Shown here piece by piece: positions 2,545-20,000 of a stretch of 20,000 nucleotides of DNA. The notes below the pieces were generated by a model. The model searched no databases and was not told the DNA's origin. It saw only the letters and a program-made list of their open reading frames with translations. The translations under genes and the position numbers were made by a program. The stretch is from assembly GCF_004010195.1 (NCBI RefSeq), contig NC_057719.1, positions 38,678,712 through 38,698,711 of the forward strand. The letters are read 5' to 3'. Numbering within the stretch: the first letter of the stretch is position 1; every line of letters starts with the position of its first letter. The stretch is from Chiloscyllium plagiosum. Taxonomy: Eukaryota.

Positions 2545-3243
2545 AATTAAAAAAAACAAAGTACTGCCAATGCTGGAAATCACAAAACGAAAAACAGAAA
2601 TTGCTGGGAAAAAAATTCAGCAAGTCTGACAGCATCTGTGGAGACAAAACGGTTTGGGTCTAGTGACCATTCTTCAGAACTGATTGTAGCTTGGAAAGGG
2701 TTGATGTATATGCTGAAGGAGAAAAAAAATATAAGTGGAGATGGAACCAGAGAGAGAGAAATAGTTGGACAATAAAGGAATGGGTAAAAGTCAGCGTGGG
2801 AGAATCAATAATTGCTAATGGGGACCATTTGTAGCTGACAATGAGTTGGTTGTGGTAGCAGCCCATGTGATGACAAAATCTGGTGTGTGGTGGTTGGGGT
2901 GAAGATATGGGAGAAGGTGCTCAGGCCCTAAAATTATTTAACTTAATACTGAAGGCTGCAGGGTTCCCAGGTGGAAAATGAGATGATAATGGTCAGAATT
3001 AGCAGGTATTGATTCCTATAGGCTGAACTTTACTCATTCCTTTCTCTCTGTCTTTTTGGACTCCATCTCCAGCCATTGTTTATTCGTCCCCTCTCCCTCA
3101 CCGCTTCTCCAGCATATATATCAACATTTTCCTAGCTACAATCAATTCTAAAGAAGGGTCACTGGACCCAAAACATTAACTTTGCTTCCTCTCAATACAT
3201 AGTGTCGGACTTGCTGAGTTTTTTCCAGCAATTTCTGCTTTTG
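2545..3243 (-). mobile_element. 5'-truncated Penelope-like element: GIY-YIG C-terminus plus pseudo-LTR, with an inverted pseudo-LTR copy
   Basis: Minus strand of about 2920-2985 reads HLIFHLGTLQP followed by a frameshifted LNNFRA*, like the PLE GIY-YIG end (EQxLIFxLxTLxPxGLN). Inverted arms at about 2594-2820 and 2998-3240. TSD-like ccagaaaactcta (2532-2544) and ccagcaaactcta (3244-3256). Confidence 0.82.
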
Positions 3244-3596
3244 CCAGCAAACTCTAGTTGCTGCCTTGCACCAGTCCCCTTCCTAATCCCAGCAAAGTAG
3301 CCTCTCATTCTGACCAGCTGGAAATGATAAACAATTGTAAAATATACACCCTCCAAGGATATTCCAATTTCCTAGCTATTCCTCTGCAAATCCTCTCCAC
3401 CACCCTCCCAGCTATTTTTCCCTAGAGCTGGGATCTACAAATTTGGAATAAACACGACATTACAATCATGCATTTACAAAGTGCGGATTTAAGTCATTTG
3501 CAATCATATCATAGTGCAGGAATGCATGAAGTGTACAACTGTGTGGGGTGTGAGGTCAGAATTTTGCTGCAGAGGTTCTTCAATGTAGCGACTAGA

Positions 3597-11399: not shown

Positions 11400-12040
11400 G
11401 TGTAAAGGCTGTAACAGTCTGAAGGTGCATCGCTGCAGTGAATTGTATCTGCCTAGTACCCTCAGGGGCTGCTGGAGATGTGCACACATCTGTATTGCAT
11501 TGTCACAGCCACTGGTCCCCTTGGCCAAAAGCTTGGAGACAGGTATCCTTGACCCCAGTTCAGGTGCCCCTTCCTCACAAGGAGACAGGGTGGTGTCAAG
11601 GGGCCAGAGTTGGAAGCATACAAAAGACTCTCAGTACTTTCCACTCAGGACACTGCAGAAGTACAGGGCTGTCCATTTCCACCCTGCCCAATCCTTTTTG
11701 ACCCTTGTAAGTTCAAGCCAAAGAGAATCTACTTGCCCTTTGGCAAGGCCCTTGGCATGTCTGGCCTGGCTAGAAACAAAAACCTTAGGGGGCTGCCCAC
11801 CAAACCTCCAGGGGCTTAAGGTCAAGCAAGGTTCTTTTACCCCAGTAGCAGAACTAGGGAGTACACTAACACGGAGTGGGAGGGACAGAAAGCCAAACGT
11901 CTATCGAGGACAATTGGGTGACAGGGGTGGAAAATGCTTGTACATTTATACAGAAATGTTCCTGATGTTAACTCTCATGTGTTTGTGTAGGTTTTAAAAC
12001 CTGTTTTCACATCATCCAATAGCATTTCATAGAAATAAAT
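11400..12040 (+). mobile_element. Possible 3' end of a Harbinger Myb-like gene (low-complexity C-terminus), degenerate
   Basis: GC-richer block whose frame includes GGCPP...GSTLTRSGRDRKP, like the basic GRPP...RRSGRxRK tail I recall for such proteins. AATAAA near 12033. Weak similarity only. Confidence 0.35.
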
Positions 12041-12519
12041 GAGGCTTTGTGGATGGAGGGGGAAACAATGTGCATACATAGCATTGGAGCAAGGTGGCAT
12101 CTTTTTTCCGCTCATTTTAACATCCGTAAAATTGGTTCCCTCTGTGCACAAAGATGTAGCTGTCAGAGCTGTGCCCAGCAGTGGCTGTGCCAGGGAGATG
12201 CAATACACAGAGAAGGTTAATGTTATCGGATTGCCAGAGAGTAGGCAGCCTGGGTGCAGTACTTTGCCTGTACTCTCCCATCAAAAGCCCAATCGTCAGT
12301 ATTTGCTTCAGCCCGATCCGTCAAAGGTTGAGTCTTTTCACCTGCCCATTCTGAATGAAGGAGATGGTGAGTATTTCTCTGCCAGTGGTTTCTATCCTCA
12401 GCCTAACATACCAGTAAGTCCCAAAATATCCATATCTCCTTCCAAGGAGCCCATCTTATTAACCCCACTGGCTTCACACTTCCCCAAATTCTTAACCACT
12501 CTATTTACATTCATCTATG

Positions 12520-12680
12520 TAAAAACAATGACTGTAGATGTTGGAAATCAGATTCTGGATTAGTGGTGCTGGAAGAGCACAGCAGTTCAGGCAGCATCCG
12601 AGGAGCAGTAAAATCGACATTTCGGGCAAAAGCCCTTCATCAGGAATACAGGCAGAGAGCCTGAAGGGTGGAGAGATAAG
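12520..12680 (-). mobile_element. Short Penelope-like terminal-repeat insertion carrying a hammerhead motif
   Basis: Flanked by tctatg at 12514-12519 and 12681-12686 (6-bp TSD). Shares the 'gatgctgcctg..ctgctg...ttccagca' 3' block with the PLE ends at 1578-1764 and 2545-3243. Confidence 0.85.
12612..12648 (-). ncRNA. Minimal type I hammerhead-ribozyme-like motif
   Basis: Minus strand 12643-12616 reads CTGATGA-A-GGGC-TTTT-GCCC-GAAA-TGTC: both core boxes intact, a perfect 4-bp stem II and a GUC triplet. Stem I is weak, and the stem III palindrome reads AUGU rather than ACGU. Confidence 0.7.
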
Positions 12681-13364
12681 TCTATGCCTACTCACTTTTT
12701 CCACCCAGGTCCTGGTATATGACGTGACCATGCCTGGGGTGGATGTGAACATTCTTTGCCTTTTCTCCATTTTCCCCTCAGATCCAGGGAGCTCCTGACT
12801 GGATGACACCTTGCTCCCCTGCTCTGGCATTATGCCCTCTAAGTCATTCTTTGCCACATTGAATTCAAGTTGGCACCGGAATGTGAAGACATTTTGTGAG
12901 CTGTCTTCAGCAGATCTTATTCTTACAAGTCTTATAATCATTCTGCTCTTCTAAACCTTAATTCAGAGTCTATCAGAATTAGTGACAATGTTCTCTTAAA
13001 TCTACTTTAAGGTTTAAAGATTTTATGACCAACGAGGATTGATTAATGACACTGGAAAAGCAAGTCTAACGGAATGGCGGGCTGATCAGCTTCCCGCAAA
13101 CCCAACCTCCTCATGGAAACCCTGAAACAAGGCTTGACCAGCATGAGAGCAAGACCTGACCCAACAGTGACCCAACATCGAGGAGGCCCCACCAGACCGA
13201 TTGCAAGACCTCCGCCGGAGTGCTCATGAACGAGAATAGTGCCCACCGGAAGCACTTACCTACCTTGCCGACACTGGAATCTCAAGCCCAGAGGCTTTCC
13301 TGCCTCTTGCAGGCCTGACCTCATGGAAATCTAAAGCCAAAGACCGACCAATGGTGGAACAAGG

Positions 13365-13827
13365 AACATAGAATCATAGAGATGTACAGCATGGAAACAG
13401 ACCCTTCAGTCCAACCCGTCCATGCCGACTAGATATCTCAACCCAATCTAGTCCCACCTGCCAGCACCCGGCCCATATCCCTCCAAACTCTTCCTATTCA
13501 TNNNNNNNNNNNCTATTTATCCTATCCATGCCCCTCATAATTTTGTAAACCTCTATAAGGTCACCCCTCAGCCACCGACGCTCCAGGGAAAACAGCCCCA
13601 GCCTGTTCAGCCTTTCTCTATAGCTCAAATCCTCCAACCCTGGCAACATCCTTGTAAATCTTTCCTGAACCCTTTCAAGTTTCACAACATCTTTCCGATA
13701 GGAAGGAGACCAGAATTGCACGCAATATTCCAACAGTGGCCTAACCAATGTCCTGTACAGCTGCAACATGACCTTCCAACTCCTGTACTCAATACTCTGA
13801 CCAATAAAGGAAAGCATACCAAACGCC
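13365..13827 (-). mobile_element. Young 5'-truncated CR1 LINE 3' end, containing an assembly gap
   Basis: Stop-free LYRTLVRPLLEYCVQFWSPSYRKDVVKLERVQERFTRMLPGL...RGDLIEVYKIM. Tail tctatgattctatgtt. 6-bp TSD acaagg at 13359-13364 and 13828-13833. Confidence 0.93.
13502..13512. other. Assembly gap (11 N)
   Basis: Run of n characters. Confidence 1.
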
Positions 13828-15279
13828 ACAAGGTGATCCAACATCGAGGAGGCTGACCACACCAGCCAAAAAACTCCTAGAACACTCAAGGCTGCAACTG
13901 GTGTCCAAGACCCCATCAGGACTATGCACTTACCTCCTGGAGTAGCAGACTTCCTTCACCAACATCCGGGATTGACTAGGAGTAGCAACCTATTCGGGAA
14001 ATGTGAGAGATGGGCTAGACTTCAGGTGAGACTGAATCAGTGGATTTCAAGCCCCCTCCCCGGCATACTCCTTACAAATGTCCAAACCATTGAAAACAAG
14101 GTGGATGACCTTAAAACTAGACTTACCTTCAAAGGGAATTGAGAGACTGTGCTTGCTCTGAGCATTTGTTTAAAATAAATGTCTCTATTGGACTAATTTG
14201 CTTCTGCTGGGAACTCTGTTACGGAATAAAAATTATTCTTGTATAATATTTCCTTAGTTATCCCTTTTATATACTTTTTGAAATAATTAAACATGTCAAA
14301 TGATGATTAATCATACTTGAGAATTTTGACAAACTGTGGGATTTTGAAACTTCAATTAAATATTGTTTGAACAAAGATGTGTTTTTCTTGGTTAAACATA
14401 TCCCCCATTCTCTCAGCTTCTATTAAAATTAATGAGCAGATGGTTACCCATTCCACAGTGGAACTGTGTGACACCTCTAATTGGATAATAACACATTGTA
14501 TTGATCATGCCTACTGGGATTCAGTTCTAATAAGTAGGAGTGAAAATATATGTTATGATTTATTTTGAATACAGTATGATTATAACTATTGTTCTCCATC
14601 GAAAATAACCACTCTTAAGTGCCTTTCATGATGCTACTTGGAAAATAAGAGTTAAAAAGTCTTCTTGATTTAGTATTGCAATTCAGATGGTGTACTGTTC
14701 ATATAAAGTTGGAACAAAAATTTCAAAAACAAAGCATGTAATGATAAACGGTATAAATATAATTGTCTAACTAAAATTTTCCTTTTTCATTAACTACCTC
14801 AAGACCTAATGTGAAGATGATTTCTGTTTTCTAACATGAGAAAGGATGTCACCAGGCTGTTTCAGTTGAATAGCTGTAATTTTACTGCCAATATATTATC
14901 ATATAGCAAGTTTATTTTTGGAAAGAAACATGGTAATGTCAATGCAATGTGATTCTTAAAAGGATTGTAATTTATCATTTGATATACACACTGAATCAAT
15001 ATTACACGTACTGTTTACACACCAAAAGCCAGAACTAGTTTCATCTTCTGAATCCTGCTGTACAATGGTTGAACTATATCAGTCATGGTGAGGGATGGAG
15101 GTCATGTTGTGGTTGAAGGGAAGGGGATTAATCTCACCTTGGGCCCACATAAGTGAAGGACTAAATGAAATGGTTCTTTCTTCTGGGTCCCAAATATATC
15201 TTCTTAGGCTCAACCTGTGGTCTTTCTAAGATTATGCCACTCACTGATCAATATGCGTGTCCTTGAACACCCAGGTCAT

Positions 15280-15780
15280 CTATGATTTTAATTCTCTGCT
15301 CCATGCACACTGACTTTTTTGTCCTCAGCATCCTGTACTGTTCCAATGAAAATCAATGGAAGTTCAAGGAACAGCATCTCATCTTCTGATAAGACTATTT
15401 GCAGTCTTCTGCAGACTCAACATTGAGTTCAACAATTTCTGATCATAACCTCTGCCTCCAGTTTCTCTTGGATTTTTGGGTTTTTCTGATTTGGCAACAA
15501 CTAATCATTCTGCTTTGCCATTTAAAATGTGTCCTCTAAGCACATGATTTTTTTTCATGTCTTTACTTAACCCATCATCACACTCTCTGCCCTGCACTAT
15601 CGCCTCCTTTGCCATTTAAACTCACTAGTCTCTCGCTCTATTACATACTTTTATTCATTCCTCTTCCTCACCTTTCTCTGTCCTCGCACACAGTTTAAAC
15701 TTGTCATGTTTCTAACATTTTCAAGCTCTGATAGGTCATTGATCTGAAACGTTAGTCCGAATGTTCCCAGTCCTGCTGAC
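15280..15780 (+). mobile_element. Old Penelope-like element 3' end (GIY-YIG C-terminus plus pseudo-LTR)
   Basis: Reads FNSLLHAH.DFFVLSILYCSNENQWKFKEQHLIF*...LNIEFNNF, then a pyrimidine-rich tract and a hammerhead-like remnant CTGAT-AGGTC-ATT-GATCT-GAAACGTTA at 15728-15754. Confidence 0.78.
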
Positions 15781-16193
15781 AGAGAATCTAAAGCAACACT
15801 GCAAAATAGCACATTGGGTCAACTACCTTTTAAGTGATCTTGCTGGAGGAAGTGTCAATACAACAGAGGCTGTAGTAGGTCTTTGCTGAACAGTAAATGT
15901 ATTACTCTCACACCAGGACTGCTGAATCAGATGTAGAATCTGTTTATTTATTATAGGATTGCTCTGCTGTCAGATGAACTGTAATCATTCAGCAACTATT
16001 GTTATAGAAAGGCATAACAGAAATCCCCTCAAACTGGACCGTACAATGGCTATTCAATAGGTTCTTTTACATCCTGGGTACTTGCTTGTTAACATCTTCC
16101 TTCCTTCCCGACAGCAACTGATAGCCAATTACATTCATGAATGGACAGTTTAGCATAATATTCATGGGATTGCCAACAGCTTCCCTACTGCTC

Positions 16194-16488: not shown

Positions 16489-16526
16489 ACTAGGCCCTCC
16501 CCTCTACCACTGCAACTTGACAGGAA

Positions 16527-17069
16527 AGGTGAGACAACACTTGGAATATTGTGTCCAGTTCTGGTCGCCCTACTATAGGAAAGATACAGAGGCTTTGGAG
16601 AGGGTGCAAAGAAGGTTTACCAGGATGCTGCCTGGACTGGAGGGCTTGCCTTATGAAGAAAGGTTGAATAAGCTCGGGTTTTTCTCTCTGGAGAGAAGGA
16701 GGAAGAGAGGAGACCTGATCAAGGTGTACAAGATAATGAGTGGAATAGATAGAGTCAATAGCCAGAGACTTTTCCCCAGGGCAGGGTTGACTGGTACGAG
16801 GAGTCATAGTTTGAAGGTATTAGGAGGAACGTATAAAGGAGACGTCAGAGGTAGGCTCTTTACACAGAGAGTGGTGAATGCATGGAATGCGTTGCCAGCT
16901 GTGGTGGAAATAGAATCATTAGGAACATTTAAGTGACTGCTGGACATTCACATGGATAGCAGTGAGTTGAGGGGTGTGTTAAGTTATTATATTTTATGTT
17001 AGGAAAAAACCTCGGCAAAACATGGTGGGCCAAAGGGTCTGCCTGTGCTGTACTTTTCTATATTCTATG
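16527..17069 (+). mobile_element. 5'-truncated CR1 LINE 3' end
   Basis: ORF 16517-16936 reads VRQHLEYCVQFWSPYYRKDTEALERVQRRFTRMLPGL...FTQRVVNAWNALP. Tail 'ttctatattctatga'. Confidence 0.93.
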
Positions 17070-17322: not shown

Positions 17323-18817
17323 GCATTTGTTCATGGTCACTGCTGCAGATGTTAGATCGGCCTTCTTGAGAGTGAACCCATGGAAAGTGACTGGCCGATG
17401 GAATCCCAGCCATCCACTCAGATCCTGTGGGGACTAGCTGGTGGGAGTATTCACTGACATCTTCAACCTCTCCTTATTAAGATCTGAAGTCCCCCACCTG
17501 CTTCAAGAAGACCACCATCATCCAGGTGCCAATGATAAAGCATGCCCCAATGATTATTGCCTGATGGCTCTGACATCTATCATTATGAAGTCCTTCCAGA
17601 GATTAGTCATGGCTCACACCAAACCCATACTACTGAATTGCCTTGAACCTTCGCAATTCGCCTAATGATACAACAGGTCCATGGCAGACGTCATTTCCCT
17701 GTCCCCATCATCCCGGGAACATCTGGACAACAAGGATAACTACTCAGGCTCCTACTTATTGACCACAGCTCCGCCTTCAATACCATAATTTCGAATAAAC
17801 TCACCTCCAAACCCCAAAACCTCGGTCATAACTGATCTTCAATTTCCTGACCCATAGACTGCAATCAGTAAGAATTGGTGACAACATCTCCTCCATGAAA
17901 ATCCTCAACACCAATGCCCAGCAAGGCTGCCTACTCAGACCTCTACTGTACCCCTTATACACTGTGGACAAATTCCACCCAAACTCCATTCACATGTTTG
18001 CTGACCACACCATCATTGTAGGTTGGATCTCAGACGATGAGACAGAATACAGCAAAAAGATTGGTATGGTGTAAAGACAACAATCGCTCTATCAACATCA
18101 GCAAAAGGAAGGAGCTGGTCATTGACTTCTGGAAACAGAGTGGGTCTTGCCTGCATGAAGGGTGTTGAGGTGGAGATGATCGATAGCATCAAGTCATTGG
18201 AAGTGATGATTATCAACAATCTGTCCTGGGCCACCCATGTCAACGTGATGATCAGGAAAGCACAACAATGCCTCGACTTCCTCAGGAGGTTATGGAAATT
18301 CAGCATGTCCGCAAAGACTTTTATCAATTTAAGTAACTGCACCATAGAAAGCACCCTATCTGGATACAACACAGCATGGTATGGCAACTGCTCTTCCCAA
18401 GACTGTACAACACTACAGAGAGTTGTGAACACAGCACAGTCCATCACACAAACCAGCCTTTTATCCATTGACTTCATCAATATTTCCCGCTGCCTTGGGA
18501 AAGCAACTCACATAATCAAAGGTCCCACCCACCCCAGTTATACTGTCTTCCACCCTCTTCTGTCAGACAGAAGATATAAAAGTTTGAATAAATGTATAAA
18601 GAGATTCATGAATTACTTTTGAATTGACCTATCAAATGTTAATGATGACCTGTGTCTCTGCACCTTTTCTGTGGCTGTAACACTGTATTCTGCACTCCTT
18701 TCGTTTACACTAATGCATTTTGTATGGTACATTCCACCTGTAGAGAACGCAAAACAATACTTTTCAGTGTATCTCGGTACCTGTGACAACAATAAACCAA
18801 ATCAAATCAACTCAAAT
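17323..18817 (+). mobile_element. Rex1/Babar LINE, 5'-truncated, about 1.5 kb of RT region plus 3' end, frameshifted
   Basis: Contains GVFTDIFNLSLLRSEVP, NDYCLMALTSIIMKSFQRLV, IDHSSAFNTII and FADHT, plus ORF 18122-18622. (AAATC)n-like tail at 18790-18817. atgta on both sides (17318-17322 and 18818-18822). Confidence 0.9.
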
Positions 18818-19410
18818 ATGTACCCATCAAATGCCTATCAAATGTTATAATTGTACCTATCTCCACCACTTCTTCTGGCAGATCATTCCATACACGCACC
18901 ACCCTCTGCATGAAAATAGCACCCGTCCGGTACCTTTTAAATATTTCTCCTCTCATTTTAAACCTAGTTTTGGACTCCCCACTCTGGGGAAAAAAACCTT
19001 GGCTATTCACCTTATCTGTGCCCCTCATGATTTTATAAACTTCTATAAGATCATTCCTCAGCCTCTGATACTCCAAGGAAAAAAAGCGCAGCCTTTTCAG
19101 CCTATCCCTGTATTTCAAACCCTCTAATTCCAGTAACAGCCTTGTAAATCTTTTCTGAACCCTTTAAAGTTTAACAACACCTTTCCTGTAGCTGGGAGAC
19201 CAGAACTGAATGCTGTATTCCTAAAGTGGCCTCACCAATGTCGTGTATAGCCGCAACATGACATCCCAATTCTTGTAATCAATCCATCAACTAATGAAGT
19301 CAAGTATTCCAAATACCTTCTTCACTACCCTGTCTACCTGTGTCTTTACTTGCAAGAAAATATGCACCTGCATCCCGAGGTCTCTTTGTTCAGCAACACT
19401 CCCTAGGGCC
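18818..19410 (-). mobile_element. CR1 LINE ORF2 C-terminal fragment; proximal part of the split CR1
   Basis: ORF 18807-19118 reads RLRNDLIEVYKIMRGTDKV...QRVVRVWNDLPEEVVE, with upstream LVRPL*EYSIQFWSP. Confidence 0.9.
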
Positions 19411-19414
19411 CAAA

Positions 19415-19470
19415 TCCTCAGCCCTGAAGCTCTTCAACCCACATTTCCTCAGCCCTGAAGCTCTTCAACC
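19415..19470 (+). repeat. Direct duplication (25 bp, 31-bp period) at the CR1/PLE junction
   Basis: tcctcagccctgaagctcttcaacc at 19415-19439 and 19446-19470. Confidence 0.95.
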
Positions 19471-20000
19471 ATGTCCTGAAACAAACTCGGTATCACAGCC
19501 ACATTTGCTTCCTCAGTGCCTGTCTCCGTAACCAACTCACCCCACACGGACTCCGGACCACATTTAAACCAGCAGAGTTCGGACCCGAACAGGACAAACA
19601 GTACAGATTACAGATTCAAAAACACCAGCAACGGTTCTCCATCAAGATCCTCCGCTCCACGCTTGCAGCAATGCGCCGGTACCTAACCTCTCTACAGTCT
19701 GCCCTCCCTCAGCTGAGGGCCACACTCTCTCAGAATCGCAAAGGACCCACTCTGTACTACATCCTCAAGAGAATTCATACTCTCAACAAACAGTATTTCA
19801 ATTCCATCTCAAACATCAAAAACTGTAAGTACAACAAACTTTTATCTACCCACCTCCATAACCAGCGCACCTCAAACATTCCAGAAGATTTCCCTGGCCT
19901 CGGAAACACCATTAGCCATGCGGCTGATGCAGCTACCACCACGACGCTGATTGATGATGTCACTTCTGCCCCCATCATGGCCACTCCCACAACCACTTCC
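19428..20000 (+). mobile_element. N-terminal coding region of a young Penelope-like retroelement ORF, open to the window end
   Basis: No stop between the TGA at 19425-19427 and 20000: ISSALKLFNHVLKQTRYHSHICFLSACLRNQLTPHGLRTTFKP...KYNKLLS...ATPTTTS. The HxxFLxxCxxxxLxPxGL motif resembles PLE ORF N-termini. RT and GIY-YIG domains are not visible in the window. Confidence 0.65.

Follow-up and report, generated by a model that had tools for sequence, protein, structure and literature searches.

The 161-bp insertion at positions 12520-12680 (minus strand) of the window, the whole 20,000-nucleotide stretch of Chiloscyllium plagiosum DNA that we analysed, is very probably a solo passenger that was dead on arrival: a 5'-truncated, retrotransposed piece of an endonuclease-bearing Penelope-like element (PLE), taken from its 3' end and carrying a decayed hammerhead ribozyme. 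It is one decayed copy of an abundant repeat, of a kind already described in 2014, and is probably inert here. The insert presumably comprises part of a pseudo-LTR (pLTR) and a tail-like part of such an element. In support of a PLE origin stand the abundance of its family, the existence of relatives both shorter and longer than the insert, and opposite-strand joints between family copies like those of the inverted copies of PLEs.

The ribozyme is a minimal type I hammerhead of 36 nt (12647-12612, minus strand) without a stem III of its own, and all core boxes, CUGAnGA, GAAA and an NUH cut triplet, are present. The 5' strand of stem I (12644-12647), which coincides with the modal 5' end of family copies (12645-12647), is followed by a core segment (12636-12643) consisting of CUGAUGA at 12643-12637 and an extra A at 12636, between positions 9 and 10.1. 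Stem II and its UUUU loop (12624-12635) come next, the GGGC strand at 12635-12632 forming four G-C pairs with GCCC at 12627-12624, among them the G10.1-C11.1 pair (G12635-C12624). The second core segment (12616-12623) holds GAAA at 12623-12620, a U at 12619 (position 15.2, C in most relatives) and GUC at 12618-12616, and leads into the 3' strand of stem I (12612-12615). The pairing of 12644-12647 with 12615-12612 comprises a C-G and a U-A pair beside the core, a U.U mismatch and an A-U pair. From standard hammerhead numbering, we take the predicted cut to lie between 12616 and 12615.

That this motif is a chance resemblance in repetitive DNA has a practically negligible probability. Such a reading could point to the bare CUGAnGA..GAAA pattern, which is close to chance in the window (5 observed versus 1.9 expected), and to the Rfam hammerhead models, a check proposed in the first-pass annotation, none of which matched the window, or 12560-12700 by itself, at E<=10. 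The complete descriptor, which combines the core with a paired stem II and stem I, however, has one match in the window, at this hammerhead, and matched 0 of 1000 dinucleotide-shuffled windows in its strict form and 1 of 1000 in its relaxed form; 22 columns are invariant with loci from other animals, and stem I covaries with them. We therefore rejected chance resemblance on the combined grounds of family abundance, the shuffle test and stem I covariation, and the near-intact minimal hammerhead inside a duplication-flanked 161-bp insertion that the first-pass annotation had reported is confirmed. The insert's fold is no more stable than those of shuffles (whole insert, z -0.8), and its minimum-energy fold, which ties up the CUGAUGA box in pairs with the 33 nt preceding the ribozyme, is a rare structure making up 0.2% of the ensemble.

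The loci from other animals come from a motif scan of metagenomes, which returned 12 loci in animal-like DNA, with 0 matches in viral contigs and 0 in prokaryote genomes. None of the 12 is from the shark family, the alignable part being the 28-nt core alone (4 of 12). Eight of them (L002-L004, L006-L009 and L011) represent one PLE family of animal origin. A GIY-YIG open reading frame (ORF) lies upstream of the same core and stem II in L004 and L008, with 675 nt from stop to core in L008, and reverse transcriptase (RT) and endonuclease matches lie upstream of the same core and stem II in L001. L002 and L006 likewise extend upstream of the core, L007 and L009 begin 3-4 nt before it, and L003 and L011 are cut short by contig breaks 4 nt ahead of it. 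On the 3' side, this family ends either 95 or 100 nt from the core, and ribozyme-headed 100-bp stubs are among its members. Since stubs (L007, L009) occur beside ORF-linked copies (L004, L008), an autonomous element suffices to make them. Stem I lies outside the search pattern, and 3 of its 3 pairs changed on both sides over seven loci (the window and 6 of the 12), the third pair being mismatched in the window's own row; the pattern used for the search dictated stem II, whose conservation in these loci is therefore uninformative. No target-site duplication (TSD) of at least 5 bp was seen around the seven metagenome copies examined, four of which lose a flank to a contig end. A U at 15.2, as in the insert, is present in 3 of the 12 loci (L005:2222-2248, L010:3161-3187 and L012:4001-4027), the search pattern having allowed U; in L005, the C form is present a short way upstream in an inverted stretch, and no difference separates L010 from L012 in the flanks compared.

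The insert is bounded on the plus strand by two copies of TCTATG, at 12514-12519 and 12681-12686, which are separated by exactly 161 bases and form the longest direct repeat in the searched flanks. Both copies lie 1-2 nt or less from the ends of family homology, and a 6-mer common to the ±2-nt surroundings of two random places in the window turned up in 0.8% of trials. The left copy is ambiguous by 1 nt because its final G also fits a continuation of the element, loose family ends occurring before 12519 with a majority G at 12518. As no empty site was found among the 15 joints listed of 31, the duplication has no support from an uninserted allele. Within the insert, the 33 nt upstream of the ribozyme (12648-12680, minus strand) extend past the stopping point of most relatives, and the tail-like last 43 nt (12520-12562, minus strand) appear to be present in a minority of them.

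At 8 or more positions (about 5%), the copy departs from the letter that most of its relatives carry. One of these positions lies inside the 36-nt ribozyme, a share that is about that of even decay and thus gives no sign of selection on the insert copy. A contig of a related organism (organism B, contig 24) spans the right junction with 31 letters inside the insert, its flank diverging by about 4%, and a second organism B contig reaches 21 letters over the left junction. The insertion is therefore shared between the two and is not recent. As to the claim that the insert holds no coding sequence, a 53-codon frame is open on its minus strand, but this frame has no homologue among longer proteins (weak evidence). 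None of 37 PLE-like proteins matched the six-frame translations of the insert at E<0.02. A 174-codon stop-free frame on the plus strand (12039-12563) also enters the insert; it has no Pfam match and is probably due to chance.

To describe the family, four of 24 sequencing runs were compared with 12300-12899 at 80% likeness: contigs of organism A (X5), organism B (X9) and organism C (X15), and raw RNA reads of organism A (X21), the last from one poly(A) single-cell library of which about 2% was read (12,955,460 records). Matching contigs numbered 47,219, 56,082 and 7,705, respectively, nearly all on 12500-12699, these counts and the summed depths not being equivalent to copy numbers and contig depth being biased towards the reference. 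In X21, 1,798 of the 12,955,460 records matched, again almost all within 12500-12699. The majority letter at 12619 gives GAAAC-GUC, with a plus-strand G in 882 of 1116 raw reads (79%) and in 64%, 57% and 75% of the summed depth of the three contig sets. Among the positions listed, all frequent core changes (12616, 12618, 12623 and 12624, each in 13-19% of reads) are of the CpG type, and the remaining common differences lie in loop II, where the letter at 12629 varies in 27% of reads, at the stem I end or beyond the motif. The consensus inferred in the first-pass annotation, and its view that this copy carries a CpG-type change, are thereby borne out, and the assignment to PLE-type minimal hammerheads is supported.

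This single change bears on the palindromic stem III through which two such ribozymes are thought to act as a dimer. The family majority, with C at 15.2, is palindromic at 15.2-16.2 and compatible with a dimer helix, but the insert copy has U-G there and is not palindromic, so that the expectation of a dimer-forming stem III fits the family and not this copy. Because the CpG-type change turns C-G into U-G wobbles, the dimer helix available to the insert copy is weakened and limited to wobble pairs. Calculated helix energies are -1.7 kcal/mol for the family type, +2.6 for the insert copy with itself and +0.1 for the mixed pair, values for bare 4-bp helices that serve as a rough guide only.

Across the family copies, raw-read depth is 929 at 12629 but 167 at 12649 and 104 at 12667, and among the ends listed, loose ends pile up behind 12645-12647 in 1,540 contigs of X5, 1,622 of X9 and 256 of X15 and in 215 reads of X21. 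The letters beyond are near-random and AT-rich for 12645-12646 and a mixture of random and shared for 12647. As the loose-end consensus begins with shared letters, part of the pile at 12647 stems from sibling subfamilies. Family copies thus end most often where stem I begins; the predicted cut site lies about 30 nt further downstream, and no pile-up appears there (12615-12616) among the best-supported loose ends listed. Among the ends listed, 178 contigs of X5 and 312 of X9 continue behind 12679 with a shared purine-rich consensus. Since some relatives run past this point, 12680 is the insert copy's own truncation point, and since most relatives are shorter and some longer, 161 bp is not a unit. 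On the 3' side, raw-read depth is about 1350 over 12580-12599 but about 190 over 12520-12539, and loose ends occur before 12562-12563 and before 12519, a pattern partly confounded by other subfamilies and by the likely small deletion in the insert copy. Joints between opposite strands at 12608/12647 were found in all four runs (10, 19 and 3 contigs and 4 reads).

These ends also bear on the proposal that the short hammerhead-headed copies form a self-propagating non-autonomous family, similar to retrozymes or SINEs, that is transcribed from its member copies, is mobilised in trans by PLE protein and counts the insert as a member. We regard this as quite improbable. The strongly non-random 5' ends, with the counts at 12645-12647 far above those behind 12679, would suit such a family. 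Head-to-tail pairs also exist but are rare: in a few contigs, 12647-12648 is linked to 12519 across a spacer of 13-22 letters, and go-back joints of 78-135 nt occur in single contigs. A 2026 preprint, moreover, derives tandem retrozymes from pLTRs and places them in one chondrichthyan (10.64898/2026.07.22.740005). On the other hand, the insert copy is 33 nt longer than the modal end and hence came from a longer RNA, the modal end lies off the cut site, opposite-strand joints are commoner than go-back joints, no second copy adjoins the insert, the 12647 pile is partly one of sibling subfamilies, and the same stub form occurs elsewhere beside ORF-linked copies (L007 and L009 versus L004 and L008). 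The suggestion of a distinct non-autonomous family therefore holds only insofar as the 5' ends, at the family level, are not randomly staggered; its 161-bp unit is not upheld, 12680 being a private truncation, no tandem array being present and the family ends lying off the cut site.

The ends of the stubs have, in our judgement, an even chance of being due to run-off at the 5' end of an RNA that begins immediately ahead of stem I, as the internal promoter of Penelope (PMC2377424) would allow. A nuclease cut at the ATT of 12647-12645, the triplet preferred by the anole element PAc, is rather unlikely. Other causes, including sibling subfamilies that diverge at this point, are possible without being probable.

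The remainder of the window is mostly LINE and PLE debris. At 19428-20000 (plus strand), an open frame that runs off the window end represents the N-terminus of a PLE ORF: it matches P0031, an 882-residue protein with RT and C-terminal GIY-YIG domains, at a tblastn E of 2e-11, and its closest database protein is from Chiloscyllium punctatum (88% identity). A profile built on this frame from 9 sequences returns 32 proteins, several of which are annotated with PF00078 (RT), PF01541 (GIY-YIG) and PF26215. The frame is preceded by a 31-bp-spaced direct repeat (19415-19470).

Sibling PLE ends that resemble the insert, some of them inverted, also lie in the window. Three of five candidate stretches beat all 500 shuffles in alignment with the insert, the scores of 1580-1770 and 2545-2700 being reached by 0 of 500, while 3120-3250 and 15700-15800 are no better than shuffles (5 and 88 of 500 reach their scores). 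In the sibling copy at 2553-2985, a tail is followed by a decayed ribozyme and a short GIY-YIG-like C-terminal peptide at 2982-2950, which shares 10 of 12 residues with P0044 (E 0.002) and is the best match for 3 of 10 queries (E<=0.06), all of these being short pairwise matches only. A PLE C-terminus profile found nothing significant in the window, the domain at the sibling C-terminus reaching E of about 11.

Several further structures accompany these copies. The stretch 1590-1750 is a small palindromic PLE-end insert, with arms at 1631-1664 and 1715-1748, that is related to the insert's element and carries a decayed ribozyme, and at 2553-3242 two 5'-truncated PLE ends from a sibling family face each other head to head. 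Decayed hammerhead-like stretches lie at 2637-2692 (minus) and 3133-3192 (plus). Another, at 15713-15771 (plus), belongs to a different family; it has kept GAAACGUU, its first box is broken, and it scores 15 bits with the model (E about 0.014). LINE-like fragments occupy 290-1090, 17400-18800, 13367-13830, 16490-17060 and 18800-19400, with direct repeats D1-D5, and one of them contains 11 N (an assembly gap) at 13502-13512. A frame in one LINE fragment matches the Pfam domain ALKBH8_N, which presumably derives from such LINEs. A LINE-like fragment also holds a perfect 21-bp inverted repeat with a 6-nt spacer (476-523), whose weak microRNA-model scores are due to the inverted repeat and to no other reason.

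Among known systems, the closest are the minimal hammerheads in the pLTRs of metazoan PLEs (Cervera and De la Pena 2014, PMC4209133), thousands of which stand alone as remnants of truncated elements. The insert shares with them the type I core without its own stem III, the extra nucleotide between 9 and 10.1 and the G10.1-C11.1 pair; its family shares the palindromic 15.2-16.2 and the thousands of solo copies. It differs in the U at 15.2 and in its short stems, with 4 bp in stem II and 2-3 bp in stem I against 7-8 and 4-5 bp in the Schistosoma families of that report. Among the hosts named there are fishes, coelacanth, frog and reptiles, and no shark is known to be included; the insert's family may already be listed in that work or among the retrozyme families that the 2026 preprint places in one chondrichthyan.

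A second parallel is the Poseidon element PAc of Anolis carolinensis (Frangieh et al. 2024, PMC11167929), whose hammerhead likewise lies near the element end. Reverse transcription of PAc starts 111-118 nt downstream of the core AUG; the corresponding distance here, counted from the A at 12640 to the end of the insert, is 121 nt. Two start sites give PAc an optional tail, to which the loose ends before 12562-12563 and 12519 in the insert's family may be compared, albeit confounded by subfamilies. As far as that account goes, PAc has no RNA ends at the cut site, as is also the case for the ends listed for our family. In PAc, the ribozyme contains the start of the ORF and needs the protein in order to cut, and cleavage is dispensable for insertion in vitro.

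Insertions of endonuclease-positive (EN+) PLEs more generally show 5' truncation, inverted adjacent copies, an optional 30-40-bp tail, short TSDs and solo pLTRs (Craig et al. 2021, PMC8557442; Arkhipova et al. 2013, PMC3846280). The insert and its family resemble them in 5' truncation, inverted adjacent copies, solo pLTRs and the 6-bp TSD, but the insert itself is a simple uninverted copy, unlike the inverted architecture, and the sections of those papers considered here do not describe 5' ends concentrated so sharply where stem I begins.

Non-LTR retrozymes form tandem arrays with at least two, mostly canonical, ribozymes and are expressed as circles (Cervera and De la Pena 2020, PMC7229834; Li et al. 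2026, 10.64898/2026.07.22.740005). The insert is like them in being non-coding, in its type I hammerhead, in its kinship to PLE pLTRs and in a length within their monomer range, and unlike them in being solo, with a minimal motif and ends off the cut sites. We rejected membership on the single descriptor match in the window, the lack of an adjacent direct copy and, among the family ends listed, the pile at 12645-12647. An LTR retrozyme, with type III motifs in two LTRs and a 4-bp TSD, was likewise rejected, the motif here being type I, the copy single and the TSD 6 bp.

A truncated PLE copy of this kind could have arisen as follows, the TSD and the truncation being observed and the reverse-transcription steps being modelled on PMC11167929 and PMC8557442. 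The element's GIY-YIG nuclease would nick the target, and the reverse transcriptase, primed within a downstream pLTR, would begin at an internal position of the element RNA some 120 nt past the hammerhead core. Reverse transcription would then copy through the ribozyme and abort 33 nt beyond it, and repair would leave the 6-bp duplication. The parent hammerhead, judging from the published work, would need dimer formation, the element protein or both to cut after GUC. After insertion, the copy would have drifted by about 5% from the majority letters, including the CpG-type change at 15.2. The link to an ORF with RT and GIY-YIG domains is observed for same-core relatives in other animals and inferred for the insert's own family.

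Could the insert copy nevertheless be an active ribozyme that cuts a minus-strand host transcript, through pairing in trans or with the help of a PLE protein? Both core boxes, stem II and GUC are intact, family copies occur in poly(A) RNA in both orientations, and the anole PLE hammerhead cuts once its protein is added (PMC11167929). Even so, we consider this extremely unlikely. The dimer helix is weakened, stem I has only two stacked pairs, and the upstream 33 nt can pair with the CUGAUGA box, if only in that rare fold. Published minimal hammerheads showed no activity as monomers and low activity as dimers (PMC4209133), and 8 of 9 Xenopus dimers did not cleave, according to the 2026 preprint. 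In X21, depth was zero in all 20 flank bins, a weak test in one poly(A) single-cell library read to 2%; the X21 positions listed show no pile-up of starts or ends, and no host exon was recognised near the insert. Of the family reads in X21, 97% continue into other sequence, which fits passive read-through of other family copies and is a weak test both of cleavage and of the insert locus. The suggestion that the insert cuts host RNA thus finds no partner, a weakened dimer helix and no flank reads in the one raw-read RNA run.

A different idea concerns the family rather than this copy. The many near-intact copies in host transcripts might constitute a latent, switchable RNA-cutting system, in which each copy by itself is silent and is turned on by PLE protein or by trans pairing. 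We hold this to be very unlikely; if it were true, thousands of sites in host RNAs would be clipped during a burst of PLE activity, as might occur in the germ line, and copies changed at 15.2, like the insert, would be weakened partners rather than dead ones.

For the truncated PLE copy that we favour, the single locus matters little, and the family-level pattern of ends is more useful. The role of PLE hammerheads has been called unclear (PMC8557442). Since the short copies in the insert's family and in the PLE family of an unrelated animal both start at the front of stem I, most of them would not have been templated by cut RNA; such starts point instead to an RNA 5' end or a nuclease cut just before the ribozyme.
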